This document shows positions 28,524-48,251 of a DNA stretch of 64,000 nt, piece by piece; within the stretch, counting starts at the first letter, position 1, and each line of letters opens with the position of its first letter. A program made the translations under genes and the position numbers. The notes under the pieces were generated by a model. That model did no database searches. It saw only the letters and a program-made list of their open reading frames with translations, and had not been told where the DNA came from. The DNA is taken from positions 15,541 through 79,540 of the forward strand of contig CAZSTB010000002.1 in the NCBI GenBank assembly GCA_964609855.1, read 5' to 3'. The stretch comes from an uncultured Bdellovibrionales bacterium (GTDB lineage Bacteria; Patescibacteriota; Minisyncoccia; Moranbacterales; GWC2-37-73).

Positions 28524-28560
28524 ATGCCTAGAAACTCAAATTATATCTTAATCGGCTGGT

Positions 28561-29553: not shown

Positions 29554-29558
29554 ACTTA

Positions 29559-30806: not shown

Positions 30807-30846
30807 ACAGACAATTTTTCAATATTAATTCACAATTTTTTAATCT

Positions 30847-32283
30847 TTAATTAGCCTGGTTTTCTTGCAAGCGCCTCAGTAATCCGAGATTTATCCAGAA
30901 AAATATGCTTAACAGATTCGCTTCCAAATAAGGTTGGAACATAAAGGCAATTATCTGCATAAGCAAGATTCCCATTGCCGCGCTGGATGCAATCTGCCAA
31001 GTGTCATCGCTAAATTTCTTTTTCAGCAGCGGATAGCCCAGGAAAATAATTGCTGCCGCTAGTGATCCAAGACCCATAATTCCCATTTGAACCAATATCA
31101 CCAGAAAAGAATTATGGATATTTCTAATTTCCACAAAGTCATGATATTTTCCTATTTCAACAGAAACTAATTTTCCATAGCCAATTCCAATTAGCGGACT
31201 GCTTACATATTGCTTGATAGATTGCTGCCAAACTGCGCTGCGCCAGATTATGCTCTCATCGCCGCCAGTATTCGTAATTGAGGTAACACGAGAACTGAAC
31301 ATCCCCACGCTGTTCATTAAAGATTCGTAAGCCTCGGAGCGTGGGAATAAGGTCGCACCATAAAAAATAACGACAAGCAAACAAGTTACGATCAAGATAT
31401 AATTAGTTGCATATTTTTTTATTCTTTCGCGCTCAGCCTTGGCAAAAATTACGATTAAAAATATCACCGCGAAAAACAAGCTTATCCACAGATGCCTCAT
31501 CATAGAACCCGCAACGCCCAAGAACCATATCGGAGTCAAAATTAGCAGCCACTTGGAAAATCTATTCCAGCGATAAGCGATGTATACCAAGGATAAGAGC
31601 AGCATCATCGCAAGATAAAATCCGTGTGTAAAAGCCAGCGTTCTGACACCCTCGGTTGAAAGCGGAGTGAAATCAGACCAGAGTCCTTTACCTGTAACGA
31701 TTCCATAAAAAACAAACCAGAGAATTGAAATGGCGCCGGCATATAATGTTGCTGCCAACTCTTTCAGGTGTTTTTGATTGTTAATCAAAATAAAGGTCGC
31801 AAAATATAATAGCGCATAATATGCATAGTTCTTACTACTACTGAAAGTTAAAGATGAGTTGCTATGAAAAACTATCGTGCTCAAAAAGAAATAACTCACA
31901 GACATGGCAATAAAAACAAATATCGCCAAATCGATTTTTTTAAATTTGAAACTCAGCTTGCGCGCCGCAATTTGAAAAGCAATTCCGGCAAGCAATGCAA
32001 AAATGAGCACATCAATCGGATACAGCTTATATTCACTTCGTCCCATCACAATCGGCGCTAAGGTAAAGAATCTTTCAAAAATGAAGGTCAAAAAAATAAT
32101 CGCATACAGTCCAGCTCTGGGATGCAGAAAAGCTGCAGCTGAGCCTACACTCATAGCAACCAAATAAAGCGGCAAATTGAAACCGAAAAAGTAATTTGCC
32201 ATCAAAAACATCCCGACAAAAGCCACAATAAATATTGCGGCGATTAGATCTAGTGAAAGTTTTTTAGATTTTTCGTCTTGCAT
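30847..32283 (-). CDS. O-antigen ligase/polymerase-like (Wzy/WaaL family) polytopic membrane protein
   Basis: About 12 TM helices with a large late loop (…GGDESIIWRSAVWQQSIKQ…), typical of the Wzy_C family. Confidence 0.65.
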   Translation of the reverse strand: MQDEKSKKLSLDLIAAIFIVAFVGMFLMANYFFGFNLPLYLVAMSVGSAAAFLHPRAGLYAIIFLTFIFERFFTLAPIVMGRSEYKLYPIDVLIFALLAGIAFQIAARKLSFKFKKIDLAIFVFIAMSVSYFFLSTIVFHSNSSLTFSSSKNYAYYALLYFATFILINNQKHLKELAATLYAGAISILWFVFYGIVTGKGLWSDFTPLSTEGVRTLAFTHGFYLAMMLLLSLVYIAYRWNRFSKWLLILTPIWFLGVAGSMMRHLWISLFFAVIFLIVIFAKAERERIKKYATNYILIVTCLLVVIFYGATLFPRSEAYESLMNSVGMFSSRVTSITNTGGDESIIWRSAVWQQSIKQYVSSPLIGIGYGKLVSVEIGKYHDFVEIRNIHNSFLVILVQMGIMGLGSLAAAIIFLGYPLLKKKFSDDTWQIASSAAMGILLMQIIAFMFQPYLEANLLSIFFWINLGLLRRLQENQAN

Positions 32284-32463
32284 AAAGATATTTTCGAGTT
32301 TTTTAAATAGTTTTCGCTTTTTAAATCTCCTGCTTTTAAATTTCCGATATATCTCAATTTAATGGCTGATTTTGCTTTAAATTGGGAATTTATTTGAAAT
32401 TTAACGTCTCCAAAAATCGACTTTACTATGACCATCTATTATAGCACATCTAAATGAAATTGT

Positions 32464-32507
32464 AAAGGCCCCACGTTCTCGATGAGAGGTGGGGCCTTTG
32501 GTTTTTT
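32464..32507. terminator. hairpin terminator (AAAGGCCCCAC…GTGGGGCCTTT + T6)
   Basis: Seen directly, immediately 3' of the GC-rich gene block on the minus strand. The T-run is on the plus side, so it may act bidirectionally. Confidence 0.5.
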
Positions 32508-32535
32508 AGCGAACATTGGGAGTCGCTACTTCTCC

Positions 32536-33606
32536 TTAATCCTTATGGCAGTTGGTGCAGACGTTCAGCTTGGCCGACGGGATGTTGAGATGGGCTTTGA
32601 TATCCTTGATATCCTTGTGCATCTCTTCAACCTGCGGCATCAGTTGACCGTTTTTACGCTTGGACTCTCCGAGTTTGTCATGGAGCGAGCGACCTTTTTT
32701 GCTTTCGCCCACGTTCTTGTCGATCCGCTTGACGTGTTTAAGCGTCTTACGGGTCTTTTGTTGTACAGACTTCTCGTCCGGCTCGTCTGACTTATCCGGC
32801 TTGCCGAGCGAGTCGAGCGTGATTCTTGCTTTTTGCTGCAAGGTGCGCTCCTCGACAGGCTCTTCAGGAGTCCACATGCCGACGGACCTTACCAGGTACT
32901 GGACGCCATTCCTGATCTCGACGATGCAGGGCTGGGTGCAGATGCCGCCTTTCCCATCGGGGCAAGGACCTCTGCGTTTGACGGTCTTTCTCGGGTACGT
33001 CGGCGGGGTGACTTTTCTGGGAGCTTCTCTGACGACCGGAGCCTCTCTCACAACAGGAACGTTTCCTACACAAGGGAAGATAACGGGTCTGCCGTCGATG
33101 CCGAGCTCATTTGCTGACGGCACATACGGCGCTCCGGGGCCAACGTACAGCAAGTACGTGCCGCCGGATTTTGCAATGCCGGGGTCAGTAATGCTTCTGG
33201 CGCATGCCAGGTTCTGACCGACCTGGATATTCCTGTCCGGAAGTCCCAGCCAAAGCGTATCAAACCAGTTTGCATCCTTGGCGAAGTTGACTCCACTCTG
33301 ACCGCCCCTGATCACTTCCATAGGGACATCCCAGTACTTCGTCAAACCTTCGGTTCTTGCAAACCTGGTCGGCAAGTTGGGGTCGCAACCCTCGCGCAGC
33401 TTGTCTGCGCAAAAATTGACGGCTTCATCTTGCCACATGTCTTCGGCGCACTGGTAGCGAACCGAATAGCGGACGAACTCCTGGTTGTTCACCAGGACGG
33501 GTTCAGCATTCACCACGGCTCCTTTTGCGAGCCAGAGCGGTTTTGCCTGAGCCGACGTTGACGCTAACATAAGCGCCGCGATTGCCAATAAGATCATCTT
33601 TTTCAT
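32536..33606 (-). CDS. GC-rich secreted Cys-containing protein of unknown function (ends …NVCTNCHKD)
   Basis: Signal peptide MKKMILLAIAALMLASTSAQA. Third codon positions are G/C-biased (about two-thirds G/C in a ~60-codon stretch tallied by hand). Confidence 0.6.
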   Translation of the reverse strand: MKKMILLAIAALMLASTSAQAKPLWLAKGAVVNAEPVLVNNQEFVRYSVRYQCAEDMWQDEAVNFCADKLREGCDPNLPTRFARTEGLTKYWDVPMEVIRGGQSGVNFAKDANWFDTLWLGLPDRNIQVGQNLACARSITDPGIAKSGGTYLLYVGPGAPYVPSANELGIDGRPVIFPCVGNVPVVREAPVVREAPRKVTPPTYPRKTVKRRGPCPDGKGGICTQPCIVEIRNGVQYLVRSVGMWTPEEPVEERTLQQKARITLDSLGKPDKSDEPDEKSVQQKTRKTLKHVKRIDKNVGESKKGRSLHDKLGESKRKNGQLMPQVEEMHKDIKDIKAHLNIPSAKLNVCTNCHKD

Positions 33607-33620
33607 CTGTGGTCTCCTTT

Positions 33621-34778
33621 TCAGTGTTCCATCTGGTCGATGGTTTGACTGGAAATTTGGATGCCGGCAGGTTTGGCACTTTGCTTACCCACCGGAGTTT
33701 CTTTTTTCTGAATCGTTTTGGCGCGCTTTTCAGCGTACCAAGTGGTGATGTCAGGAGTGGCCTCATAGGCAGCAATGATGCCGCCAAAAGGCCCAAGACC
33801 AGTGAACAGATTGGCCGTAAGACCAAGGCTGAACCTGTTCTTGTATTTCACCCTTATCGATGGCGCAAAACCGGTGAAGATGTCTCCGTCTAAGAAACCG
33901 ATACTCGCACCTGCTCCGGAAATAACCTTGTAATCCTTGTTAAGCTTATGTTCCCAGAATATTCCCGGGCCCACGAAGCTGTCATGGTCAAAGATACTTC
34001 CGTCCACCTGCAGCGTCAACCTGTTCTTATGGTTCAGGATATGATCGAACTGCACGTGCGGCGTGAGCATGACGCCATCTTTGCGGTTCATGTCGAACCT
34101 CCAGAGAATTCCCATGTCTGCCTCAAACGAGTTGCGCAGACCAAGACCTCTGTAGTATCCGACATGCGGACCAAGAGCATAGTAGCCCCAATCCGCCCCG
34201 CTGGGAGCGGCGCCGTAATCACCTCGGAGGCTTGCGCCGATACCGAAGTTTTCTGCCTTCTCATATCTTGTGAACCACTGGAGCCATTTCAGGTTTCCCC
34301 AAACGCCCCAGGTGTCGTGTTCGAAGTTCTTCCAGGCTCCGGTCCAGAACGAGACCTCAGGAAAACTTCCCCAAGTCCTTTGCTCTGGATTTTCGAATTC
34401 CGGAAGCGCTTCAGAAGCAGCTGGCGCGGGTTGAACTTCCGCTGGAGGTTCCTCTTTTAACAGAGGAGCTTCGAGCGGTGCAGCAGAAACAGTAGGCGCC
34501 TGCTCCTTAACTTCAGGAACAATCGTCGGCTCCGTCACTTGCTGCTCAACCACGGCAGGCGCTTGTTCCTTAACTTCAGGAATAATCACCGGCTCAGCTA
34601 CTGGCGTCTCAACCACTGCGGGTTGTTGAGGGATACTTTTGCCTCGCGCATATTCTGCGAGAGCAGCGTCCCTTCTTTTTGCTCTGACAGACTGCAGATC
34701 CTTACACGGATCTTCAGCTGCCGCCACGACACTGACCGAAGCCAGCATCAACAATATCGCCATGAGTTTTTTCATCAT
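33621..34778 (-). CDS. GC-rich secreted protein: signal peptide, Pro/Glu-rich tandem repeats (PEVKEQAP x2), then a W/G/Y-rich beta-rich domain
   Basis: MMKKLMAILLMLASVSVVAAA is the signal peptide. The domain has alternating aromatic/glycine patterning. The stop overlaps the downstream gene's start (ATGA). Confidence 0.6.
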   Translation of the reverse strand: MMKKLMAILLMLASVSVVAAAEDPCKDLQSVRAKRRDAALAEYARGKSIPQQPAVVETPVAEPVIIPEVKEQAPAVVEQQVTEPTIVPEVKEQAPTVSAAPLEAPLLKEEPPAEVQPAPAASEALPEFENPEQRTWGSFPEVSFWTGAWKNFEHDTWGVWGNLKWLQWFTRYEKAENFGIGASLRGDYGAAPSGADWGYYALGPHVGYYRGLGLRNSFEADMGILWRFDMNRKDGVMLTPHVQFDHILNHKNRLTLQVDGSIFDHDSFVGPGIFWEHKLNKDYKVISGAGASIGFLDGDIFTGFAPSIRVKYKNRFSLGLTANLFTGLGPFGGIIAAYEATPDITTWYAEKRAKTIQKKETPVGKQSAKPAGIQISSQTIDQMEH

Positions 34779-35770
34779 TTTCTCCTTTTCGCAACTGCTT
34801 GCGCAGCGGGCGTTGGTTTTGTTTCGGTCTTTGCTGGTTCCACCGCGGGTGCGGGTTTTTCGATTTCTCTCTTGGTTTGCAGGGCAGCAATTTCAGCATC
34901 TTTCTTTGCCAGCTCCTCGTTCAATTCGCCGATAAGCGTCTGACGAAGTTGACTGACAATTTCAAACATTGCCGAAGCTTCTGCTCCTGTAATTTCCGAA
35001 TAGAAATCCCAACCTTTTGGCGGAGACTTCACTGTCTCCCAAAGCGTGATGGAAGCCTTTGCAACCATTTCCACCGGGTTAAGTGAGATCACCATCCTGT
35101 TTCGCAGCACAAAGCGTTGGAAACCAGTGTAGCCAGGGTTGATTCTGGCGATTCTCTTCATGTCATCCTCTCCAAGCGGAGAATAGACTTCGCCGTAATC
35201 AGTCTTGTAACGGTTCCAGGACTTAACCTGGGAATAAAACCCCTTTACAAGATGCCGAGTGCCAACAGCAACTCCATATTTTTCAACCAGCTCTGCACGA
35301 TATTTCTTTTCATCATTGAATCGAATGCGATCGATCGGCACTAATTTTCCGCTTGACCAAGTGCAGTCTGTACGCGACGAAAGCGGAATGAACTTTGCGG
35401 ACTTGAAGTCCGAAAATTTTCCATCAATTATCACGAAAGACATGAACTCGCCGCTACGGTAGTTGCCAGCCAACACAAACTGTGCGAAAGCCTCCTCCCC
35501 TTTGGAATTCACACTCCATCCGGGAAAAGAAATTCTGCCAGCGCGCATCTCTCCGCCAATCTGAGAATCAGATATGGGTGCGTCAATGATTGTTACCTCG
35601 CCGCTTTCGATAGCCGGCGTAACCCGAATTCCAACTGCGAGTTCGGGGTAGGTTGTGAGCTGCAAGGGCTTCCCGAAATGGAGCGGCGCTTCTCTGATAC
35701 CCTCAGAGTGGGCGCAACCGAAAATCGGAAGAGCAAAACAAATTGCCAGAACTGCGAACATTTTTCTCAT
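34775..35770 (-). CDS. GC-rich lipoprotein with a C-terminal coiled-coil/Ala-Pro-Lys tail
   Basis: The signal peptide with IFGC lipobox-like cysteine is MRKMFAVLAICFALPIFGCA. The tail is …LNEELAKKDAEIAALQTKREIEKPAPAVEPAK…. Confidence 0.55.
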   Translation of the reverse strand: MRKMFAVLAICFALPIFGCAHSEGIREAPLHFGKPLQLTTYPELAVGIRVTPAIESGEVTIIDAPISDSQIGGEMRAGRISFPGWSVNSKGEEAFAQFVLAGNYRSGEFMSFVIIDGKFSDFKSAKFIPLSSRTDCTWSSGKLVPIDRIRFNDEKKYRAELVEKYGVAVGTRHLVKGFYSQVKSWNRYKTDYGEVYSPLGEDDMKRIARINPGYTGFQRFVLRNRMVISLNPVEMVAKASITLWETVKSPPKGWDFYSEITGAEASAMFEIVSQLRQTLIGELNEELAKKDAEIAALQTKREIEKPAPAVEPAKTETKPTPAAQAVAKRRK

Positions 35771-35902
35771 GGCTAATCTCCTGTATTTTTCAATCCTTTT
35801 AAGTTGTAAAGGTCCAACTCAGCTCAAAACGATTTCGAGCTTACCAGGAGACTCTGATATTACAATCCAGAGTCCCATAATCTACTCAAAATACAATGCT
35901 AG

Positions 35903-36655
35903 TTATTCGTAAATTTTAAAATCGCCCATATTTTCATTACTTTGAAAGTTACCCGCGGTTTCCATTCTTGAGAGTGGTGAGGAATTGATTGGAGACTCAA
36001 CATGCTCAGCCTTGGTTAAGTGAGCGAAAATTGATTTCCTTCGACGACTTTCACCATAAACCAAATACAGCACACTAAGCATGCTACCCAATATGAATCC
36101 TCCGATTGTTGTTGCTAAAATATTTGCAATAGATGGATTCTTTTCTACAACGGGTCCGGATAATACTTTCACATCGATATTCTGACCATCGCCGCGAAAG
36201 AGACTGTTTTTTGTCGTTAGCACTTCCACAACCGACTGCGAAATTGAAATCGCTTTTCGCTGATCATTTTCAAAAATTTCTATTCCAATGATTCCTAAAT
36301 CAGGATTGCGGGAAACTTCGACGATTTTGCTCCATTGTTTGAGTTTTTCTTTTTTATCAAATGGTAGAAATTCCACATTAACTTTTCCAGTCTTTATAAC
36401 CTCATCAATGAAAAGTTCACTGTATACAGCTTCATTCAATATTTTTCCGATATACTCTGCCGATTTGGAAAGCGTATAAAAATCTTGTGCCCCACCTTGA
36501 TTTTGCACAATCAGATAATCAGTACTCACCTTGTAATTTTTCTCCTTTGCTAAAAGCGCAAAGAATGAAAAAGCTGCAATCAGCAAACCGAATAATAAAA
36601 TTATTCCTGCTTTTTTGCTTATTAAGGCCAATATTCGCTTATATTCCATATGCAT
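35903..36655 (-). CDS. polysaccharide co-polymerase (Wzz/chain-length-determinant-like) protein
   Basis: N-terminal TM, ~180-aa periplasmic domain, and a C-terminal TM (TTIGGFILGSMLSVLYLVYG). Composition is AT-rich, like the host genome. Confidence 0.55.
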   Translation of the reverse strand: MHMEYKRILALISKKAGIILLFGLLIAAFSFFALLAKEKNYKVSTDYLIVQNQGGAQDFYTLSKSAEYIGKILNEAVYSELFIDEVIKTGKVNVEFLPFDKKEKLKQWSKIVEVSRNPDLGIIGIEIFENDQRKAISISQSVVEVLTTKNSLFRGDGQNIDVKVLSGPVVEKNPSIANILATTIGGFILGSMLSVLYLVYGESRRRKSIFAHLTKAEHVESPINSSPLSRMETAGNFQSNENMGDFKIYE

Positions 36656-36732
36656 TGATTCATTAAATGATAACTTACTATCTTAGCAGAAAAATCAAAT
36701 TTTGTCAATAGCAGGGCAACTTTAAAATTAAA

Positions 36733-36766
36733 TATAAAAAAAGGCGGGGAGAAATTTCTCCCCGCT
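36733..36766 (-). terminator. rho-independent terminator (GGCGGGGAGA-AATT-TCTCCCCGC + T-run on minus)
   Basis: Seen directly, 3' of the lipoprotein gene. Confidence 0.6.
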
Positions 36767-36777
36767 CATCGCCACTA

Positions 36778-37725
36778 TTAGTAGCGGATAAGTCCGTCGA
36801 CGCTGACGTTTTGCTGTACGCCGTTTACGAAAAACTCACACACGGTTGGATCCGTGTTGAATGAAACGAAAGTTCCGTCCGGCCTCACCAGATAAGGCAT
36901 GCCGGCTCCCGAAGCTTGCGTAGCATTCGCTAGAACCGTTGTCGGCAGAACTAGCGCTGTTACGACGCCAGCTGCAGGATACCAGGAACCGTTATCATTC
37001 CAGGCAATCCTGTACCCAGCGATAACGTTGCCCTGAGCATCCAACACGGTTTCACCCAGGATGCCACTGACGAGATTCAGAAGCTTTCCTGCTGCAATTG
37101 CTGGTGTGATGTCGATTTGTCGCGTGAGCGTGTTGATACTCACTCGGGTTTTCACGATTACAACAGGTGCTGCAGGGTCTATGATAATTGGCGCAGTTCC
37201 CACTGGCTGGACGGCTGCATATAGCAAACCGTCAGCTTTTCTTTCTGCTACCATGCCAGCACCTGCTTTGATTACGAGCCAGTTGGGGTCCGTAATCTGC
37301 GCGAGTTCCGTGCCATCGTCCAACACATAGCTGAAGTTGCCGCCGGACGCGCCAATGGGCTGACCCGCGATTTCCACTGCGAGCGTACTCGGGTCAAATT
37401 GCAGGGCGATTCCCTTGGTGCAGTCATCCCTGTGAAATCCCACCGCGCGGTCGTTCCAGTAGATTTTGTTGACCCTCCCTTTTTCTACAAACACCTCTGC
37501 CACGCCGTTTGAGGCATGAACGAGATACTCGCGAACAATCGCCGGCTTGAAGACGGTTTTATCCGCGTCCACAAGAAGTAATGCCTTTGCTGCGTCCGTT
37601 TCTCCGATGCTCGGTGTGGTTACTGAACTGACTGAACTGGACTTTTCGTCGCCGCCTCCGCCGCCGCATCCCATCAGTGAGACTGCCAAAAATGTCGCTA
37701 CTGCGCCTAAAATTAGCTTTTTCAT
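36778..37725 (-). CDS. GC-rich lipoprotein (lipobox LMGC followed by a Gly-rich linker)
   Basis: MKKLILGAVATFLAVSLMGCGGGGG is the signal peptide and lipobox. Third codon positions are G/C-biased. Confidence 0.6.
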   Translation of the reverse strand: MKKLILGAVATFLAVSLMGCGGGGGDEKSSSVSSVTTPSIGETDAAKALLLVDADKTVFKPAIVREYLVHASNGVAEVFVEKGRVNKIYWNDRAVGFHRDDCTKGIALQFDPSTLAVEIAGQPIGASGGNFSYVLDDGTELAQITDPNWLVIKAGAGMVAERKADGLLYAAVQPVGTAPIIIDPAAPVVIVKTRVSINTLTRQIDITPAIAAGKLLNLVSGILGETVLDAQGNVIAGYRIAWNDNGSWYPAAGVVTALVLPTTVLANATQASGAGMPYLVRPDGTFVSFNTDPTVCEFFVNGVQQNVSVDGLIRY

Positions 37726-37919
37726 ACTACCTCCCTTTTCTTTTTGATTGTTGTATAGCTAAAAACTAGGCCTCCTAAATCAAATTAAATTGTTCAAGTA
37801 CAACCATATAGTATACTCCTAATTTAGATATTTGTCAAGCATGAATAATTATAGCGAATATAAAAAACTTCACTTGAAAGTGAAGTTTTTTAACGCGCGC
37901 TTAGATTTCAAGAATCAGC

Positions 37920-39089
37920 TTATAATTTGACAGCAGTTTTTAACTCTTTCCCTTCACGGTCAATCAACAGTTCGATTTCATCACCCTTTTTAAATTGATT
38001 TATAACATTTGAAAGTGGGTTGTCTAAGTTTATATTTTGCCCGTTAACAGATATAATGATGTCATTTATCTTAAGACCTGCAATCTCAGCCGGAGAATCA
38101 GCAATGATGGCTAAATTTTGTTTTCCAGATGGTGACCATATTAGCGCACCCCTGTCGCGACTGATCTTATTGGCGATTGAATACTCTTTTGTAATGGAAA
38201 CATAATATGCACCAAGCATCGGGCGACTCTCAAAACCTCCACGCAAAACTCTGTCTAATGATTTCTCAATAGCAGCTGCTGGAATCTGAAAATATTTTTC
38301 CTTACCATCAATAGTCAGCATTCCAATTATACCGATAAGTTCCCCACTATACCCAATCACAGGACCTCCGATATATTCCTTTTGCTTTTGGAAATCATCT
38401 TCGAAAACACCCTCTAGTTTCTCAGAAGAAGCTACTGTTTTCCCGGCGAGATTAAAAGTCTTGTCAAGATTACTTAGCAGTCCTGATTCATAGCGGTTTT
38501 GGTATTCTCCAAATGAATTTCCAATTGCCACGATTTTTTTTCCCGGTCTCACGCTTGCGGAATCGGCCAGTGAGATAGCTGTCAAATTAGGTGCATCCAT
38601 CTTAAGATAGGCCAAATTAGAAAATTCATCGATTGCCACCAATTTAGCTTCGTAATAGTTTCCATTGAAAAGAAAAACGCTGTAGTTTGCATCTTCCTCT
38701 ATAATCGAATTACGATAAGTCACAATCATTCCATCGCTGGTAATTATAACGCCGGTACCACTTTGATTTACGGCTTTCAAATTTTTTGCTTGCATATCTT
38801 TTTGCGAGCTGACAGAAACGATATTCACCACAGCATTGGATGGTTGAGATGCAATTTCATTCACCGAGTCATCTTCCTTAATAATCACCTGCTCAGTTTT
38901 ATTGATAACCGTTACATTTTCAGCGGTTCTCTCAAGGAAGCTTATTTTGGATAAAACCTTATTGGTTCTTATGAGGGGCAAAATTTGTTGATCAAAATAG
39001 ACGCCTCCAATACCGCCAACAATAAAGATCAGAAACAGTGCAGCAATAATTTTCAGGGCCTTTTTCATTTTCATCATTTTTTCACTCAT
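37920..39089 (-). CDS. HtrA/DegP-family pseudo-protease (trypsin-like fold + PDZ, catalytic triad lost), membrane-anchored
   Basis: At the three positions where the adjacent true HtrA has TNKHVV / RDVAVIKV / GNSGGPL, this protein has TYRNSI / NLAYLKM / IGGPVIG. The PDZ region is retained. Confidence 0.7.
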   Translation of the reverse strand: MSEKMMKMKKALKIIAALFLIFIVGGIGGVYFDQQILPLIRTNKVLSKISFLERTAENVTVINKTEQVIIKEDDSVNEIASQPSNAVVNIVSVSSQKDMQAKNLKAVNQSGTGVIITSDGMIVTYRNSIIEEDANYSVFLFNGNYYEAKLVAIDEFSNLAYLKMDAPNLTAISLADSASVRPGKKIVAIGNSFGEYQNRYESGLLSNLDKTFNLAGKTVASSEKLEGVFEDDFQKQKEYIGGPVIGYSGELIGIIGMLTIDGKEKYFQIPAAAIEKSLDRVLRGGFESRPMLGAYYVSITKEYSIANKISRDRGALIWSPSGKQNLAIIADSPAEIAGLKINDIIISVNGQNINLDNPLSNVINQFKKGDEIELLIDREGKELKTAVKL

Positions 39090-39121
39090 TTAATTCGTAT
39101 TATAAAAAAAATTATTTACAT

Positions 39122-39976
39122 CTATACTACCGGGAGCCATCTGGCACTTGAAAGCACTACCCCAACCAATATTCCCAGAAAAAGCATGTTCCCAACAACG
39201 CGTTTTTTCGATAGTTCATCCAGGAAATGACTAGCTGCAAGATCCCAGAATACATAATAGAAAATAAGGGTAATCACGCCTGTTGTCAAGTAACCAAAAG
39301 GCCAAAAATTCAAAATCCAAACAATTTCTGCCATCACAAAACCCAGCACCAAGCTGTAATTTAAAACTAACTTCTTATCATCATTTATGAGTAAAAAATA
39401 TTGAAAACTAATTAAAACTGTAATCAGCATCAGCAAAAGCATCAAAATCCAAAGCGAAATACTAAAATTCAAATAGATTCCAAAAGCTACAGAATAAAAA
39501 AGAAAAATTGTGGCGACGCTTGCAGCGGCAATGATTCCTCTGGCTGTTTTGTCCTTTTTGCAGTTTCGAAGTCGATAAATTGCGATATGCATAAAATAAT
39601 ATGCGATCGCTCCCAGAGAAATCAAAAAATGTTCCTGTTTTTCAGATTGTACAAAGTAAAGAATCCCAAACATTGAAGCGACAAATGCAACAGGAATCAC
39701 CGTCATGTTCACGGAGCGACTTAACTTGTAAGCAACTTGAAAAAAATAATAGCCGCCAGAAAAAAGAAACAGTGTTAGCAATGACATTCTGCCGAACGAA
39801 GCTGACATGGAAATTATCTGCTCGCCGATGGAATCATAAGAAATAAATTCGAAAACAATAAGAAAAATCAAACTATAGAGAAATACGGAAACATGAAAAA
39901 ACATGAATATTAATCGTAAATAAATTAGGAAAAAACTCCTTACACGCATTTTCTCATTTTGCGGTAACTCTGTCAA
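39122..39976 (-). CDS. polytopic membrane protein (about 8 TM helices), unknown family
   Basis: Hydrophobic throughout. Its stop lies 33 nt upstream of the pseudo-HtrA start, so the two are probably co-transcribed. Confidence 0.45.
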   Translation of the reverse strand: MTELPQNEKMRVRSFFLIYLRLIFMFFHVSVFLYSLIFLIVFEFISYDSIGEQIISMSASFGRMSLLTLFLFSGGYYFFQVAYKLSRSVNMTVIPVAFVASMFGILYFVQSEKQEHFLISLGAIAYYFMHIAIYRLRNCKKDKTARGIIAAASVATIFLFYSVAFGIYLNFSISLWILMLLLMLITVLISFQYFLLINDDKKLVLNYSLVLGFVMAEIVWILNFWPFGYLTTGVITLIFYYVFWDLAASHFLDELSKKRVVGNMLFLGILVGVVLSSARWLPVV

Positions 39977-40073
39977 AGCAGTGAAAACTGAGATACGATC
40001 AATTTATAATCAGGATTTAAGCTGTCTTGTAAATTTAAAAAAGACTTGGATAAAAATCCAAGTCTTTTAAACG

Positions 40074-42689
40074 CTATTTAGTCAAGACGATTTTCTCATT
40101 TTCCAGATTCACTTTAACGCTGTCACCTTCAATAATTTTTTTCTCAATTATTTCAAGTGCCAACTCATCCAGAATTTCATTCTGAATGATTCTTTTCAGC
40201 GGCCTAGCACCATATGTTGGATCGTATCCCTTGGTCGTAAGATATGTTTTCGCTTCATTGGATACTTTTAACTTTATATTTTTTTCATCCAACCTCTTTT
40301 GCACCAATTTAAGCTGCAATTCAACTATCTGTTGCAGGATTTTCTTATCTAAAGGATGAAATATAATCAAGTCATCGATACGATTTAGGAATTCTGGCTT
40401 GAATTGCTCTCTCAGACTTGCCTGCACCTTGGCCCGCATCTCAGCTTCACTTGGAAGGTCTTCTCTGCGCTCACTTTGAAAACCGAATGATTGCATTTTG
40501 TAAATAATCTCACTACCAACGTTAGAAGTCATGACGATTACGGTATTTTTGAAATTTACCGTGCGTCCTTTGGAATCTGTCAATCTTCCGTCATCCAAAA
40601 TTTGCAGAAGAATATTGAAAACTTGCGGATGAGCTTTTTCAATTTCATCAAACAAAACCACGCTGTATGGCCTTCGCCTGACAATTTCCGTAAGTTGGCC
40701 ACCTTCTTCATAACCGACGTACCCAGGAGGAGAACCGACAATCTTGGCAGTAGAATGCGCTTCCATATATTCGCTCATATCTAATCTCACCAAAGACTTT
40801 GGGTCATTAAATAAAAATTCCGCCAAAGTTCGTGCCAATTCAGTTTTTCCGACCCCGGTTGGTCCTAGGAAAATAAACGAACCGATAGGTCTATTTTCTT
40901 CAGAAATCCCGGCACGCGAGCGTCTGACAGCATTAGAAACTGCTCTGATTGCCTCCTCCTGTCCGATAACTCTTTTCCCAAGTTCTTTCTCCATGTATGC
41001 AAGCTTTTCCAGTTCACCCTCAAGCATTTTGGAAACAGGAATTCCAGTCCAACGAGAAACTACTCGCGCGATATCTTCTTCTGTAACTTCCTCTTTCAAG
41101 ATAGAATTTTCTTTTTGGATTTTACTCAATTTCTTCTCATCTTCCTTAATTTTTTTCTCCAACAATGGAATTTTTCCATAACGAATCTCTGCGACCTTAT
41201 CCAATTCACCTTTGCGCTCAGCGACCTCAGCAAGCGAACGCAATTGATCGATTTCTTTTTTATGCACGCGACTTGAAGTGATCAAATCCTTTTCAGTTCG
41301 CCATTGCAAAGTTAAGCTGTTGGATTTTTCTTTCAGCTCAGCTAACTGCTTATTGATTTGCAATATTTTTCTCCTGGACTCTTTCGCCTTATCTCGTTGA
41401 ATCGCTTTTTTCTCGATTTCCAGCTGCCTGATTTTACGCTCCATTTGATCGATTTCAATCGGCATGGAATCGATCTGCATTCGCAGTGCTGAAGCCGCTT
41501 CATCAATTAAATCTACTGCCTTATCTGGCAAGAATCTATCACTGATATAACGTGATGATAATTTTACGGCTGCTTGCAAAGACGTATCAGTAATCTTTAC
41601 TCCATGATGCAACTCATATTTTTCCTTGATTCCACGTAGAATCGCTAACGAATCATCAACGGAGGGTTCACTAACCAGTACTGGTTGAAATCTTCTTTCA
41701 AGAGCGGCGTCTTTTTCAATATATTTCTGATACTCCTTAGTTGTTGTAGCGCCGATAGTTTTCAATTTTCCACGTGCAAGTGCGGGTTTGAGCATATTTG
41801 ACGCATCTAATGAGCCCTCTGTCGCCCCAGCGCCAACTAGCGTATGCAGCTCATCAATGAATACAATATATTTTCCTGCGGCATGTTCAGTCTCCTTAAG
41901 GATCGCTTTCAGTCGGTCCTCAAATTCACCGCGAAATTTAGCTCCCGCTAAAAGCGCAGCCAAATCCAGCGAAATCAGTTCTTTATCTTTCAAAGTTTCA
42001 GGAACATCACCAGAGGCAATTCGCTGAGCTAATCCCTCAACAATCGCAGTTTTCCCCGTTCCAGCTTCTCCAATAAGCACCGGGTTATTTTTTGTCCTTC
42101 GCGACAACACTTGCATGACGCGACGGATTTCTTCATCTCTTCCAATTACTGGATCCAATTTATCCTGCCTCGCTAAATTTGTAAGATTTATCGTATAGCG
42201 GTCGATCACTTGGAATTTTCCTTCCGGCTCTGGTGAATCAACCCTTTGTGATCCTCTGAGCTGTGAAAGAATCTGCAAAACTACTTCATATGTGACACCA
42301 CTTGCTTCCAACATCTTTTTAGCTGCTGAATTCGATGAAAGTGCCGCCAATAAAAGATGCTCCGTGGACACGAATTCATCATTGATACCATTCATCTCTT
42401 TTTCAGCTTTTTCCAATATTTCAACTAAAGACGGTGTAACTATAATTTGACCTATCACAGGAGCAATTCCCTTGGGATATTTTTGAATTTCTGCCAATGT
42501 GTCCTTTTTTAATTTATCAATATCCAGACCAATCTTAGCCAGTATTGTAGGCACAATGGAACCTTCTTGAGAAACCAATGAATTTAATAAATGGAAAACA
42601 TCAACTTGTTGCTGTCCGAGGGAAAGAGCCAGTTCCTGAGACTTCCGCAGAGCCTCTTGCGACTTTGTTGTAAATTTATTAATATCCAT
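40074..42689 (-). CDS. clpB: ClpB disaggregase (AAA+ chaperone)
   Basis: It has a Clp N-domain, two AAA modules ([16 protein letters not shown]) and a coiled-coil M-domain. The likely start is MDINKF. Confidence 0.95.
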
Positions 42690-42761
42690 AATTGAAATTA
42701 TTCCAAAATACAACATTCAACGCACTATTGGACGAGGTTTGCACGTTGCATTTTGATTAGC

Positions 42762-44084
42762 TTATTGTTTTAACTCTTGTAATTTAACTTTCACATCTTT
42801 TGTTTGTCCTTTGTGCCAGATTTTTAAAGCAATTTCATCGCCGACTTCATATTTTACTATCATATCACCTAACTGATTATCTTTTGTAATCTTTTCTCCA
42901 TTAATTTCTAAAATAATGTCATTTTCGTTAATGCCGGCAATATCTGCAGGTGAGCCTGGAATTACTGCGAAATCAGTCAATTTATTTCCTCGCATAACCA
43001 AAACACCGTAATCGAAGGGCAATTGAGCTTCTCTTTGAACAATTGAATCAACCGCAATATATCTTACTCCAAGGTAAGGAACTGTCACCCTGACTCCTTT
43101 CTCAACCTGGTCAATTATGCGCTTAACTTGATTTACTGGCAATGCGAAACCCACATTTTGAGCTCCTTGCGCAGTAGCAACGTTTATCCCTATTACATTA
43201 CCTTCAATGTCTAAAAGTGGTCCGCCTGAATTTCCTGGATTTATCGCAGCATCAGTTTGGATGATATCAGTCAATCTCTCAGTCTCCCCAACGCGCGAAC
43301 CTGCATTCACATTTCGCTTCAAGCCTGAAACAATCCCCCTGCTCACTGAATTTGAAAATTCTCCCAACGAATTACCGATTGCAATGGTAGTTTGGCCGAT
43401 TTTTAAAGAGTCGGAGTTTCCCAATGGTAAAACTGGAAAATCATTGCCCTCAACCTTAATCACCGCAACATCTCTTACGGGATCTTGAGTTAAAACTTTG
43501 GCAACATATTCCTTGCCATCATTCGTGATTACTTTGTATTCCGCCTGCTTATCGCTCACCACATGCTTATTGGTTAAAATTAGACCATCAGATGTGATGA
43601 AAAATCCGCTTCCTGCCCCAATCTGCTGCTTCTGCTCCCCGTTATCATCATTATTTTCATCTCCGTTTTCAAATCCAAAAAATGGATTAAAAAAGAAAGG
43701 GTTCATAGAACTGGCAACATCTTTTGAAACAATGATGCTGACTACAGCTATCGAAGATTTTTCAACAACATCAATAACAGCTGAATCTTCAATTATAACC
43801 TGCTGCCTACTGACAACCGGATTTAAAGATTCCGATTTAAACATAGGCAAATACTCCCCGATTTTTTGTTCAAATTTTGGAGAAAGTACACTCACAATGC
43901 CAGCGGAAAAAAATCCAAACAGCGCACCAAAAAAGGATGACGCTACAATTGCAACAACCATCAATGCCAAAAGAAATTTTATACTCAGAGCTTTCTCGTT
44001 TTTTTTAATTTCCTTTGGCTTTTCAAAGATTTCTTTTCCTGTTTCCATATTCATGGTTAGAAAATTTATATGAGCCAGGGCCAA
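42762..44084 (-). CDS. htrA: HtrA/DegP serine protease with PDZ domain
   Basis: The catalytic His (TNKHVV), Asp (RDVAVIKV) and Ser (GNSGGPLL) are all present, with an N-terminal TM anchor. Confidence 0.85.
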   Translation of the reverse strand: MALAHINFLTMNMETGKEIFEKPKEIKKNEKALSIKFLLALMVVAIVASSFFGALFGFFSAGIVSVLSPKFEQKIGEYLPMFKSESLNPVVSRQQVIIEDSAVIDVVEKSSIAVVSIIVSKDVASSMNPFFFNPFFGFENGDENNDDNGEQKQQIGAGSGFFITSDGLILTNKHVVSDKQAEYKVITNDGKEYVAKVLTQDPVRDVAVIKVEGNDFPVLPLGNSDSLKIGQTTIAIGNSLGEFSNSVSRGIVSGLKRNVNAGSRVGETERLTDIIQTDAAINPGNSGGPLLDIEGNVIGINVATAQGAQNVGFALPVNQVKRIIDQVEKGVRVTVPYLGVRYIAVDSIVQREAQLPFDYGVLVMRGNKLTDFAVIPGSPADIAGINENDIILEINGEKITKDNQLGDMIVKYEVGDEIALKIWHKGQTKDVKVKLQELKQ

Positions 44085-44159
44085 ATAAATTTTTTCATTA
44101 ATTTTTACTTAAATTTTAAAGTAATTATAATAAAAAATCGATTCGAATTTAAAAATAAT

Positions 44160-44400
44160 AGCAGTCTTTTCCAATACCCTAGGGGAAGCCTTGAGGTACC
44201 TGCCTGCTGGCAGACAGGTTAAACCTTTTGATGTCGTCGCTCCCTGTCTGCCATACCTACGGCAGATAAACCAATAGGGCTCGGAAATTGAAAAGAGCAC
44301 TTTTCTTTTCGCTCGATAATAAAGATTTTTACTCCCTAAAACCCACCCGTTGTAATGGCTGAGATTTGGGAGACCTATTGGTTATACAAGTAGAATTATA
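44160..44400. ncRNA. candidate structured non-coding RNA or leader (GC-rich, several stable hairpins) upstream of htrA
   Basis: The hairpins are ACCTGCCTGC-TG-GCAGACAGGT, CTGTCTGCC…GGCAGATA and CCCTAGGG. GC content is well above the surrounding AT-rich intergenic DNA, and there is no plausible ORF. I found no RNase P or tmRNA core motifs. Confidence 0.2.
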
Positions 44401-44536
44401 TTATTCTTCTGAACTATAATCAAAAATAAGCTTCTACGTTAAAACAATTTATTGTCGAACGAAGTCGAGCGAAACGAAAATTCATTTTCGTTTCGCTCCC
44501 TACCGGTAGGCAGGCTTGCCCCGGGGTTGATGCCTT

Positions 44537-44725
44537 TTATTCTTCGATTGAAATCGCACTAACTGGACAGCTGTCTGCAGCCTCCTGACAGCAAGCAATT
44601 TCTCCGCATTCTTCAACAATTACATGTGATTTTCCGTCCGCTTCCATCTTGAAAGCTGAGGGACAAAGGGATTCGCATGTTCCACATCCGATACATAGAT
44701 CATGATTTACATTTGGTTTTGACAT
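44537..44725 (-). CDS. small [4Fe-4S] ferredoxin
   Basis: CIGCGTCESLCP…C…CPV is the cluster-binding pattern, and the protein is 62 aa. Confidence 0.75.
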   Translation of the reverse strand: MSKPNVNHDLCIGCGTCESLCPSAFKMEADGKSHVIVEECGEIACCQEAADSCPVSAISIEE

Positions 44726-44758: not shown

Positions 44759-45850
44759 TTAGAGCAATAATGATGCGTCTCCTTGAGCATTTTCGCGTTG
44801 TAGCTTCTCAAATGAGCGCATTTCCTCTTCAGTAAATTCAACCGTAGCCCCAAGCGAATTCCATTGAAATTCTTTCATAGGCAAAACAACATCTAAATCT
44901 TTCTTTTCGCGCTCCAGCCAATCAGCAAAGGTTTTCTTAGCGACGAATATTTGTCTAATTTTGACTGTTTCTTCCTCTTCAGTCTTTTTTCTCTCCTCTA
45001 CATCAACTATATGAAATCCGACAGAACTTTCGATGACGGAGTTCTTCTCCGAAACTTTCCCGGAAAATAAAGCTTCTTGTAGTTCAACTAAAACCTGATC
45101 TTTATTTACCCACCCCAACTCTCCATTTTTTTCCTTAGAGAACCCCTCCGAATGACTACGCACAACTTCGGAAAATTCTTTTCCAGCATTCAATGCAAGC
45201 TGAGCTTGCTTTATTTTATCTTCTGCCTGCTTATTTAAAAGTGCATTCTCAGAAAAAACAGATTCCGCCAAAGCCTCGCTGTACATACTTGGAAGAACTA
45301 TTTTAATTTTGAAATCTTCCATATCCCATCCATAAGATTTCATCAAATCTTCTTTCACCTGGTCGGCAGTTCCAAATTCATTTAACTTTTGTGCAACTTT
45401 CTTATCAACATCTACTTGCGAAATTTTAATTCCACGCTTCTTAGCTAAGATTTCAATCGCACGATCTTCAATCATCTTATCTAAAACTTCCCGTTGTTTT
45501 ATTTTCAGTCTTTTTTTACCAATTTCTGTTGTAAAATCTACACGTAATCCTTCTTGGGAAAAATTTTGCATTCGGTAAAATCTTTCCACTGAATTCATGT
45601 TGCTTTGGAGGTCTTTGAGATAAACTGGGTGTCTCCAGTCCACAATTGCAGCCGGAAAAGGAATTACGATGGATATTTTTGCAGCAATCTTTTGTCCGAT
45701 TTCAGTATCTGTACCATATGCCAAAACACTTCCTAAGCCTATCATGAAAAACACTAAGATTAGAAAGGCATAAACCATCGTTGAAACAGAAACCTTAATA
45801 GCCTTTTCTCCGTCTTTTATGGTGAGTATTTTCTTTTGTTTTTTTTTCAT
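44759..45850 (-). CDS. membrane-anchored parvulin-type peptidyl-prolyl isomerase (PrsA/SurA-like)
   Basis: N-terminal TM helix, then the PpiC-type region EFSEVVRSHSEG…ELGWVNKDQVLVELQEALF…GFHIV. Confidence 0.65.
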   Translation of the reverse strand: MKKKQKKILTIKDGEKAIKVSVSTMVYAFLILVFFMIGLGSVLAYGTDTEIGQKIAAKISIVIPFPAAIVDWRHPVYLKDLQSNMNSVERFYRMQNFSQEGLRVDFTTEIGKKRLKIKQREVLDKMIEDRAIEILAKKRGIKISQVDVDKKVAQKLNEFGTADQVKEDLMKSYGWDMEDFKIKIVLPSMYSEALAESVFSENALLNKQAEDKIKQAQLALNAGKEFSEVVRSHSEGFSKEKNGELGWVNKDQVLVELQEALFSGKVSEKNSVIESSVGFHIVDVEERKKTEEEETVKIRQIFVAKKTFADWLEREKKDLDVVLPMKEFQWNSLGATVEFTEEEMRSFEKLQRENAQGDASLLL

Positions 45851-45866: not shown

Positions 45867-46250
45867 TTAATATTTAAAGAAAAGATTCCACCATTTCAGG
45901 TAATTTGGTGTGACAATCTCATCTGGCAACTCTTTCAAATCATCGACTATCAACTGTTCTTGTTCAGTAACATTAGGCTTTATAACAACAACTTTTTCAT
46001 CAGGTTTTTGAAGATTTAACTTCTCCTTGGCAACTTTCTCTTGAAATTCGGACGTTTGCAGATAAGCAATTTTTTGTGAAAGTGCAGTATTCTCGCCTTG
46101 AATTCGCTGAGCATTAAGCTTCAATTCTTCAACTTCTTTTTCAATTTTTCGGGAACGATAAGCCTCTTGAAAAGCATTTGTGGATATGGTAGCAGCCAAA
46201 ATTATACCAGCAATAAAGAAAACCGCGATAAAAGAAAATTTTGTTTTCAT
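45867..46250 (-). CDS. FtsB/DivIC-like septum formation initiator
   Basis: N-terminal TM followed by a coiled-coil (…EVEELKLNAQRIQGENTALSQKIAYLQ…) and a short extracytoplasmic tail. Confidence 0.5.
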   Translation of the reverse strand: MKTKFSFIAVFFIAGIILAATISTNAFQEAYRSRKIEKEVEELKLNAQRIQGENTALSQKIAYLQTSEFQEKVAKEKLNLQKPDEKVVVIKPNVTEQEQLIVDDLKELPDEIVTPNYLKWWNLFFKY

Positions 46251-46460: not shown

Positions 46461-48251
46461 CTATCTCTTAAGTACTGCCAGATAAGCTTCGGAAGGAACT
46501 TGGACTTTCCCGATGTTCTGCATTTTTTTCTTACCTTTCTTCTGCTTATCCAACAGTTTATTTTTTCTGGTCACATCCCCACCATAAAGTTTCGCGATTA
46601 CATCTTTGCGGAATGGTCGGATTGTTTCGCGTGCAATAATCTTAGCTCCAATAGAAGCCTGCACTGGAATCACGAAGTTTTGGCGAGGAATTGCGCCTGC
46701 CAATTTTTCAACGATTCTCTTTCCCTCTCTGTGTGCCCAATCCCTGGGAACGATTCGTGATAATGCTTCCACGGCTTCGCCAGCTAAAAGTATATCCAAC
46801 TTAATCAAATCAGATTTACGATAGCCTATAACATCGTAGCTCATAGATGCATATCCGGATGATACGCTTTTAAGATCATCATGAAAATTTACAATGATGT
46901 CCATCAAAGGAACTTCGAAACTTAAGAGAATACGTTCAAGATCTATATATTCAGTATTCAGATATGCGCTGCGTAGTGTGCCCATTAATTCCATAATCGA
47001 TCCCAGATACGTGGCTGGCGTGATAATATCCAGTTTTACATATGGCTCAAAAATCTCATTGAGCTGTGAAGGATCTGGCATCTGCGTAGCGCTATAAATC
47101 TTTTTCAGTTCATCGTTTCCTTTCAGAGTAATTTCATAGACTACGCTTGGCGTTGTAATTGTTGGAGAAAAATCAAATTCCCGCTCAAGTCTCTCCCTGA
47201 TAATTTCCAAATGCAGCAATCCTAAAAATCCACAACGGAATCCTTTTCCAAGTGCCAGATTACTTTCAGGTTCAAAAACAAATGACGCGTCGTTCAACTT
47301 CAATTTCTCCAACGCATCGCGCATGGCATTGTAGGCATCGCCTTCAATTGGATAAAGTCCCGCATATACCATCGGACGAACTTCCTTATATCCTGGTAGA
47401 CTCTGCACCAAGGCTCTGTCACCCTCAACAGTAATTGTATCTCCCACGCGACAAAATTCCACGCTCTTAAGTCCGGTTGCAATATATCCAATATCGCCGG
47501 CAGTCAGCATTTCTGTTGGTGAAAATTCAGGCTTAAAATATCCGACTTCAATCACTCCTGATTCTTTTTGCGTTGCCATCATTCGAATTTCATCGTCACG
47601 CTTTACATGGCCGTCAACTATTCTCACGTAAGCAAGCACTCCTTTGTAGGTATCATATTTAGAATCGAAAATTAACGCGCGCAGGGGTTTTTCAGAATCT
47701 CCAATTGGCGCTGGAATTTTTTCCACAATTGTTTTTAAAATTTCCTCCACACCGATTCCGGTTTTACCAGAGGCTTCCAAAATCTCTTCTTCTTTGCAGC
47801 CTAAAATATGCATGATTTCTTTTTTGGTTTTTTCCACGTTAGCATTTGGAAGATCAACCTTATTCACAACGGGGATTATCTCCAAATCCTGTTCGATTGC
47901 CAAGTAAAGATTTGAGAGTGTCTGAGCCTGCACGCCTTTGGTGGCGTCCACTAGGAGCACAGCACCCTCAACTGCAGCTAACGACCTGGAAACTTCATAA
48001 CCGAAATCAACATGTCCTGGCGTATCTATAAGATTCAAAACATATTCCTGCCCATCATAACTGTAGTTCATCCTCGCTGGCTGCAATTTAATCGTAATTC
48101 CACGTTCACGCTCAAGATCCATCTGATCCAATAATTGTTCCTTCATCCTTCTCTTATCAACTGTGTTTGTCACCTCTAAAAGACGATCAGCTAAGGTGGA
48201 TTTTCCGTGATCAATATGCGCAATTATGCAAAAATTTCTAACGTTTTTCAT
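46461..48251 (-). CDS. lepA: elongation factor 4 (LepA)
   Basis: The N-terminus NFCIIAHIDHGKSTLADRLL is diagnostic. It is a full-length GTPase with the LepA C-terminal domain. Confidence 0.95.
   Translation of the reverse strand: MKNVRNFCIIAHIDHGKSTLADRLLEVTNTVDKRRMKEQLLDQMDLERERGITIKLQPARMNYSYDGQEYVLNLIDTPGHVDFGYEVSRSLAAVEGAVLLVDATKGVQAQTLSNLYLAIEQDLEIIPVVNKVDLPNANVEKTKKEIMHILGCKEEEILEASGKTGIGVEEILKTIVEKIPAPIGDSEKPLRALIFDSKYDTYKGVLAYVRIVDGHVKRDDEIRMMATQKESGVIEVGYFKPEFSPTEMLTAGDIGYIATGLKSVEFCRVGDTITVEGDRALVQSLPGYKEVRPMVYAGLYPIEGDAYNAMRDALEKLKLNDASFVFEPESNLALGKGFRCGFLGLLHLEIIRERLEREFDFSPTITTPSVVYEITLKGNDELKKIYSATQMPDPSQLNEIFEPYVKLDIITPATYLGSIMELMGTLRSAYLNTEYIDLERILLSFEVPLMDIIVNFHDDLKSVSSGYASMSYDVIGYRKSDLIKLDILLAGEAVEALSRIVPRDWAHREGKRIVEKLAGAIPRQNFVIPVQASIGAKIIARETIRPFRKDVIAKLYGGDVTRKNKLLDKQKKGKKKMQNIGKVQVPSEAYLAVLKR

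Follow-up and report, generated by a model that had tools for sequence, protein, structure and literature searches.

The window analyzed here, a 64-kb stretch of DNA (GC 0.39) in whose positions all coordinates are given, carries two adjacent genes that are the subject of this report. The first (39122-39904) encodes a polytopic membrane protein of 260 amino acids (aa) that belongs to the Pfam family DUF5656 (PF18900), and the second (37920-39089) encodes a 389-aa HtrA paralog with an N-terminal transmembrane (TM) anchor, a protease-like domain that lacks the catalytic triad, and one PDZ domain, which we refer to as pseudo-HtrA. These assignments draw on Pfam matches and AlphaFold2 (AF2) models, together with alignment for pseudo-HtrA and with the MFFH start for the DUF5656 protein. 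All relevant genes, with the features mapped in and around them, lie on the minus strand of the window, and the order of transcription is lepA, a DivIC-like gene, a peptidyl-prolyl isomerase (PPIase) gene, a ferredoxin gene, an active htrA, clpB, the DUF5656 gene, and pseudo-htrA. An earlier note on this DNA had placed the pair upstream of clpB and htrA; on the minus strand, the order is the reverse, with the pair on the downstream side of htrA and clpB.

The two genes of the pair are separated by 32 nucleotides (nt), not 33 as first given, and this spacer contains no hairpin. One intrinsic terminator hairpin is found 3' of clpB, between clpB and the pair (40039-40068; 13-bp stem and U run, −16.6 kcal/mol, z = −6.9), and another is found 3' of pseudo-htrA (37862-37891; with a U run after it, −14.7 kcal/mol, z = −4.3). 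Ahead of the pair, a consensus scan, which is no proof of function, returned a sigma-70-like promoter candidate (TTGACA-17-GAAAAT with TG; 39948-39976). Given the flanking terminators, the hairpin-free spacer, and the promoter-like site upstream, a bicistronic DUF5656/pseudo-htrA transcript is likely in this genome, and the co-transcription proposed in the earlier note is plausible on these inferred grounds. No CIRCE heat shock operator was found when up to three mismatches were allowed, CtsR-box matches occurred at chance level with none within promoters, and no Rfam family reached its gathering score anywhere in the window.

Pfam searches of pseudo-HtrA returned Trypsin_2 over the full model (positions 1 to 144 of 144; E = 3e-14) and PDZ_2 (E = 6.5e-11), and the protein is 32% identical over 281 aa to the neighboring active HtrA (E = 9e-47). 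The trypsin-like (S1C) domain, delimited by Pfam and alignment, maps to 38235-38765. A profile search of the PDB matched residues 103 to 387 to DegP-like chains (E = 4e-35), and the AF2 model (predicted local distance difference test [pLDDT], 70) was matched by Foldseek to DegQ, DegP, Deg1, and DegS (E of about 1e-22; DegQ, E = 4e-22). The PDZ domain (37923-38225; pLDDT, 80 to 92) keeps its carboxylate-binding loop, R289-P-M-L-G293-A-Y-Y, of which G293, Y295, and Y296 are invariant in the family alignment. The retention of the trypsin fold and the PDZ domain, as noted earlier, was therefore borne out, with residues 193 to 233 of the second barrel poorly modeled (pLDDT, <50). Pseudo-HtrA scored below the NCBIfam cutoffs for TIGR02037 (136.9 versus 416.2 bits) and NF047968 (127.9 versus 470 bits); the active paralog is likewise under the NCBIfam HtrA cutoff, at 287 bits. 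The defense protein models of PADLOC matched neither pseudo-HtrA nor the DUF5656 protein.

In the alignment with the active neighbor, the motifs TNKH, RD, and GNSGG stand opposite TYRN, SN, and YIGG of pseudo-HtrA. The triad positions are thus occupied by N127 in place of His (codon 38709-38711), N158 in place of Asp (38616-38618), and I240 in place of Ser (38370-38372), all read from the sequence, in agreement with the dead paralog described in the earlier note. Judged by its sequence, pseudo-HtrA cannot act as a serine protease, because the catalytic His and Ser are irreversibly lost. The protein belongs to the HtrA family by homology but is without its defining catalytic feature, and it is best named an HtrA pseudoprotease.

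The N terminus of pseudo-HtrA is basic (5 K/R in residues 1 to 13) and is followed by a single hydrophobic helix, residues 14 to 32 (38994-39050), which hydropathy identifies as an N-in signal anchor and which contains an invariant GGxGG motif (G25, G26, G28, and G29). This arrangement of a basic N terminus and one TM helix predicts that the ectodomain is located outside the cytoplasmic membrane. Beyond the anchor lies a conserved, family-specific juxtamembrane segment (residues about 50 to 70, ENVTVINKTEQV; 38880-38942), for which the monomer model has a pLDDT below 50.

The loss of the triad extends across the family. The His column is never His in the 120 closest homologs (58 to 100% identity), and the Ser column is I, V, or L in all 121 close sequences, that is, these homologs and the window protein. 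Likewise, neither His nor Ser is present in any of 64 full-length proteins encoded directly 3' of DUF5656 in metagenomes (40 to 73% identity), where the nucleophile position is I, V, or L in 59, while the 39 active HtrAs from the same loci all retain H/D/S. Among more distant relatives, 114 of 116 are without the triad, the two exceptions being outgroup-like active HtrAs. An exhaustive profile search of clusters formed at 50% identity gave 31 top representatives that are all dead and at least 60 dead clusters among the best 150. The homologs carry the source labels Candidatus Moranbacteria, Moraniibacteriota, Parcubacteria, and Patescibacteria group, and one related locus is labeled Candidatus Paceibacteria.

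Two residual features could be taken to indicate a noncanonical hydrolase or a decaying relic: the oxyanion-hole-like GGP motif is retained, and the Asp is kept in about 27 to 40% of the members. A noncanonical hydrolase conflicts with the aliphatic residues at the nucleophile position (121/121 and 59/64 in the two sets above). Moreover, alignment A2 has no column in which His is invariant, and the deep alignment A3 has none in which His, Ser, Lys, or Cys is. These alignments thus lend no support to a relocated triad or a Ser-Lys dyad, which also answers the restoration of the triad elsewhere in the protein that the earlier note had named as a refutation. The decaying relic was refuted by conservation across more than 60 clusters at 50% identity. 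We regard hydrolase and relic together as extremely improbable. The family is under purifying conservation, with 58 invariant columns at 58 to 73% identity and motifs that persist down to about 25 to 28% identity. Pseudo-HtrA is a genuine and selectively maintained protein, and its triad loss is clade-wide and not a sequencing accident.

A separate HtrA-like clade with a conserved cytoplasmic N terminus (...IKIKSI...; P0271, P0288, P0312, P0324, P0342, P0347, P0357, and P0389) was also encountered. Its triads are mixed (HDS, SES, QDS, EDS, NQA, and SDL), a mixture suggesting that the HtrA triad has eroded repeatedly and independently.

The membrane protein, left without a family in the earlier note, matches DUF5656 with 30.6 bits against a gathering score of 23.3, and all 47 relatives searched match PF18900 as well (best E = 1.2e-12). 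The match is confined to the C-terminal half of the Pfam model (positions 112 to 240 of 242). The start of the gene is the ATG at 39904 rather than the TTG upstream of it, and the product has 260 aa, since all relatives begin with MFFH and the public model is of that length; the start at 39976 given earlier was accordingly revised. The AF2 model (pLDDT, 90.4; predicted template modeling score, 0.86) shows nine long helices and one short amphipathic helix (residues 24 to 37), so that about nine TM helices replace the eight counted before. Even loops hold 12 K+R and odd loops plus tail only 3, and the protein is therefore predicted to be oriented N-in/C-out.

Certain elements of this protein are conserved. 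The loop FWPFGYLT between TM7 and TM8 (39284-39307), predicted at the outer face, is invariant in 76 unique sequences. The C-terminal tail, A-R-W-L-P-V-V-COOH (39125-39145), is predicted to be extracytoplasmic and is a candidate PDZ ligand. In 86 sequences, W(−5) is found in 85, P(−3) in 81, and a terminal V, I, or L in 82. The tail is flexible in the AF2 model, the last three residues having a pLDDT below 50. In the cytoplasmic loop YRLRxxxKDxTARG, R111, D118, and T120 are invariant, the last two also in the broader set.

Foldseek found no solved structure similar to the DUF5656 model (best E = 1.4), and a sequence search of the PDB found no relative. Comparison of segments of the alignment by hhalign gave probabilities of at most 1.1% for an internal repeat, and a transporter-like repeat is thus without support from the sequence. 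TauE did not match even at E ≤ 1, no transporter signature was seen, and no flippase, polymerase, or glycosyltransferase was found to be similar. The literature search returned no mention of DUF5656 and no description of this patescibacterial pseudo-HtrA family. JGI lists one member, P0226, as a “multisubunit Na+/H+ antiporter MnhG subunit,” a name that the sequence does not support.

The coupling of the two genes was followed in metagenome contigs scanned with a degenerate pattern derived from the DUF5656 alignment, which yielded 80 loci (39 to 65% identity). Pseudo-HtrA follows DUF5656 directly and on the same strand in 76 of the 79 loci in which 300 nt or more lie downstream; in the remaining three, the downstream DNA is only 301 to 361 nt long. 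The spacers are mostly 0 to 60 nt or overlapping. The order is also kept in five more distant loci: mreB-DUF5656-pseudoHtrA in L088, a 1.3-Mb Moranbacteria contig; PPIase-fdx-DUF5656-pseudoHtrA in L089 and L090; clpB-DUF5656-pseudoHtrA in L091; and in L092 a pair with a member just 28% identical to the window protein. The conservation of the pair across relatives, which the earlier note had made a point to check, is thus observed.

The surroundings of the pair are more variable. A PrsA-like PPIase, HtrA, and ClpB are encoded upstream in most loci, and of the 42 loci for which 5.5 kb upstream was available, 31 have clpB, 30 htrA, 27 both, and 8 neither. In relatives with clpB-DUF5656 spacers of 6 to 13 nt, read-through from clpB is likely. 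Since upstream htrA and clpB are variably absent, the conserved unit is the DUF5656/pseudo-HtrA pair and not a “proteostasis island.” The inclusion of clpB and htrA in the unit was considered and rejected on this variable absence and on the terminator that intervenes in the window. Of the island described in the earlier note, what stands is that clpB, htrA, and the PPIase gene lie upstream in the window; as a feature of the family, it is facultative, given the 8 loci without either gene, the position beside mreB in L088, and the terminator after clpB. We regard DUF5656 and pseudo-htrA as an ancient, self-contained module of Moranbacteria (Patescibacteria/candidate phyla radiation).

Neighboring genes also bear on whether the pair has its role not in protein quality control but in the machinery of the cell wall, of polysaccharides, or of division. 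In favor of such an accessory role in envelope assembly, divIC/ftsB is found upstream in most loci, mreB is directly upstream in L088, and a Wzz-like/Wzy_C/GT4/beta-helix cluster is encoded downstream of the pair in the window, with parts of it recurring in about 15 of 50 related loci. This cluster is, however, absent in about 70% of the loci, and the searches with DUF5656 detected no resemblance to flippases, polymerases, or glycosyltransferases, which leaves this role very doubtful.

In L088 (4747-11353), the pair is found between mreB and a gene for a Sortilin/BNR-repeat protein; RRF is encoded two genes downstream and an M50 (RseP-type) site-2 protease three genes downstream, and no other locus seen has an intramembrane protease in its vicinity. 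Among the neighboring genes of the pair in the window, in L003 to L007, and in L089 to L092, no anti-sigma factor, sigma factor, or site-2 protease was found.

The remaining genes of the window locus are as follows. The active HtrA paralog (42762-44084) was identified by family match and alignment, with H/D/S intact, a TM anchor, and one PDZ domain, and the ClpB disaggregase (40074-42716) by family match. The longest open reading frame (ORF) of clpB gives 880 aa versus 871 aa for the ortholog in most related loci, and the true start is probably an internal ATG (MDINKF...) near 42689. The PPIase (44759-45850) is of the PpiC/SurA type, PrsA-like, and membrane anchored according to family match and hydropathy. 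The 62-aa ferredoxin (44537-44725), the DivIC-like protein (45867-46250), and LepA (46461-48251) are encoded by context genes. Between the ferredoxin gene and htrA lies a noncoding gap of about 450 nt (44085-44536) without an Rfam match. It contains, right after the ferredoxin stop, a perfect 15-bp palindrome (GAGCGAAACGAAAAT/ATTTTCGTTTCGCTC; within 44467-44498), probably a terminator. An inverted repeat of 11 bp is found in the gap as well (44208-44253).

The stretch from 32000 to 37700 differs in composition, with a GC of 0.43 to 0.49 versus about 0.36 to 0.40 elsewhere in the window. It holds five ORFs, of which four have no Pfam or NCBIfam family match, and lipoprotein-like signal peptides are present in two of these four. 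Pfam gives no match for the fifth (35903-36655) either, which is hit by TIGR01006 (CpsC/Wzz-type chain-length determinant) with E = 3e-10, below the cutoff. These ORFs are followed by Wzy_C, GT4, beta-helix, and GT4 genes at 27393-32283.

A locus from a different lineage, the 4.2-kb contig L095 (GC 0.49), bears on the origin of the partnership. It carries a DUF5656 homolog of 269 aa (E = 9e-25 against the family profile) that is about 20% identical overall to the window protein and whose stop abuts the ATG of an HtrA gene, with a spacing of 0 nt. This HtrA is TM anchored at its N terminus and has an intact triad (TNRHVV, DFAIV, and GNSGGPL). The DUF5656 proteins of L095 and the window share ExxW in TM7, the PxGYLT outer loop, FYVF in TM8, and the C-terminal tail, the last as S-x-RWLPV-[AV]-COOH with RWLPVA in L095. 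By the predicted topology, the elements that survive this deepest divergence would all lie at the outer face or at the C terminus. Because L095 couples DUF5656 to an active HtrA, the partnership is, by this comparison of sequences, older than the loss of the triad.

We tentatively favor, at somewhat under even chances, a noncatalytic membrane complex at the outer face that binds exported polypeptides or acts as an adaptor in quality control. In such a complex, DUF5656 would dock the ectodomain of pseudo-HtrA stably on the outer side of the membrane. On DUF5656, contact may be made by the PxGYLT loop and by the C-terminal tail, whose RWLPV-COOH sequence is a plausible PDZ ligand; on pseudo-HtrA, it may be made by the HtrA-like ectodomain and the juxtamembrane segment. 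The complex would act without proteolysis, either binding and holding unfolded exported polypeptides or serving as an adaptor in extracytoplasmic quality control, and could work side by side with the active HtrA and the PrsA-like PPIase, whose genes are often close to the pair.

The comparison of conservation between pseudo-HtrA and active paralogs from the same 30 genomes informs this reading. In the juxtamembrane region (residues 33 to 70), mean column conservation is 0.64 in pseudo-HtrA versus 0.36 in the active paralogs, and the L3-like loop is about equally conserved (0.76 versus 0.78). Residues 52 to 74 and 193 to 233 share positions with the juxtamembrane segment and the L3-like loop; they are highly conserved and yet have a pLDDT below 50 in the monomer, which fits folding of these residues that depends on a partner. 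Hydrophobic C termini are ligands of HtrA PDZ domains, as with the YxF motif of outer membrane proteins for DegS, and in active HtrAs, L3 relays PDZ binding to the active site. DegP without its catalytic serine keeps its chaperone function. Of the roles suggested in the earlier note, that of a chaperone-holder is the most reasonable functional guess for the pair.

Several observations weigh against a holding or adaptor complex. Pseudo-HtrA is less conserved than the active paralogs at L1 (0.65 versus 0.89) and L2 (0.56 versus 0.79), which fits a lost canonical substrate cleft and not a conserved holdase groove. The mirror-tree analysis of pseudo-HtrA and DUF5656, controlled for ClpB and PPIase distances, gave a partial r of −0.1 and thus no coevolution beyond phylogeny. 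The DUF5656 tail could merely be an interfacial Trp anchor for TM9. The pairing of DUF5656 with an active HtrA comes from the single 4.2-kb contig L095, and the proteostasis neighborhood is facultative among the 42 loci. Chaperone activity is undemonstrated even in HtrAs of the Gram-positive type (PMC12826053).

The same tail and PDZ domain could instead form a protease-free envelope stress switch, in which the PDZ domain of pseudo-HtrA holds the DUF5656 tail until the C termini of misfolded proteins compete it off. The output would be a changed state of DUF5656, as a channel, a transporter, or a relay to its cytoplasmic loop YRLRxxxKDxTARG. The conserved, predicted extracytoplasmic tail, the intact PDZ ligand loop, the highly conserved L3-like sensor loop, and the invariant R111, D118, and T120 of the cytoplasmic loop are all consistent with a switch. 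Each step of it is speculative, though, and the neighborhoods examined have neither a cytoplasmic output domain nor a sigma/anti-sigma pair or kinase linked to DUF5656 and pseudo-htrA; we hold the switch to be improbable. A related proposal, also decidedly unlikely, is a protease-free surface sensor or gate in which the PDZ domain would clamp the RWLPVV-COOH tail of its 9-TM partner and hydrophobic C termini exposed on misfolded exported proteins would displace the tail and switch DUF5656 between states, the whole having descended from a DUF5656/active-HtrA pair with the tail as a built-in allosteric ligand.

A further possibility, rather unlikely in our view, is that the dead HtrA and DUF5656 together switch on or localize the active HtrA noncatalytically, as an activator or “prozyme” similar to MamO, by way of mixed trimers or of an activity of the membrane protein toward solutes or ions. 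Precedent comes from the degenerate MamO, which promotes proteolysis by MamE without a triad of its own and requires its membrane domain to do so (PMC4794232). The active paralog lies at most 5.6 kb upstream in 30 of 42 loci, and the N-terminal AVVxI strand region of HtrA trimers is conserved in both paralogs. Against an activator of this kind, the pair persists in 12 of 42 loci without an active htrA nearby, the partial r between the mirror trees of pseudo-HtrA and HtrA is 0.16 (no excess coevolution), DUF5656 has neither a TauE/transporter signature nor an internal repeat or solved structural relative, and the HtrA partnered by DUF5656 in L095 is itself active.

The pair gives DUF5656 its first functional context, a dedicated HtrA-type partner that is active in one lineage and dead in Moranbacteria. 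Public names of the dead family are “S1C family serine protease,” “serine protease Do,” and “2-alkenal reductase,” none of them supported by the sequence. Since pseudo-HtrAs cannot be serine proteases, the proteolytic capacity inferred for their genomes is overstated. These genomes are minimal, and a pseudoenzyme retained in them is unlikely to be dispensable. The pair is a natural experiment in which catalysis has been removed from the HtrA scaffold, parallel to MamO/MamE and yet with the PDZ domain kept. The proposed docking of the tail to the PDZ domain is testable without culturing the organism, using peptides and the recombinant ectodomain.

With respect to the known HtrA/DegP/DegQ/DegS proteins (MEROPS S1C), the protease-like domain and the PDZ domain of pseudo-HtrA are homologous and closest to the single-PDZ, TM-anchored Gram-positive type. 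Gram-positive HtrAs have an N-terminal membrane anchor and an extracytoplasmic body (PMC12826053), and pseudo-HtrA resembles them in its N-terminal membrane anchor and its predicted extracytoplasmic body. Its clade differs from the family in being without the triad His and Ser and below curated cutoffs, and in having a specific juxtamembrane motif and an obligatory DUF5656 neighbor.

The DegS-RseA-RseP system shares with pseudo-HtrA a membrane-anchored, single-PDZ protein of the HtrA type. The PDZ domain of DegS reads hydrophobic C termini, and DegS is an active protease that signals by cleaving RseA. Pseudo-HtrA is incapable of proteolysis, and no anti-sigma or sigma factor was seen next to the pair, so that the comparison with DegS/RseP-type signaling drawn earlier is weak.

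MamO and the degenerate copies of MamE2 are similar in that an HtrA-type domain was duplicated and its catalysis lost. MamO further resembles the present pair in its association with a polytopic membrane module and in its coexistence with an active HtrA paralog. The NCBIfam MamO model scored 51 bits against pseudo-HtrA, with a cutoff of 800. In MamO, the degenerate HtrA-type domain is joined to an 8-TM TauE-like domain, and its function is noncatalytic (PMC4794232). MamO is one polypeptide without a PDZ domain, has a two-His metal site, and is encoded in the magnetosome island; here, two genes are involved, the membrane protein is unrelated to TauE, the PDZ domain is retained, no His is conserved, and the neighborhood is lepA-divIC-PPIase-htrA-clpB. 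MamO is the nearest described counterpart of the DUF5656/pseudo-HtrA pair in its possible mode of working.

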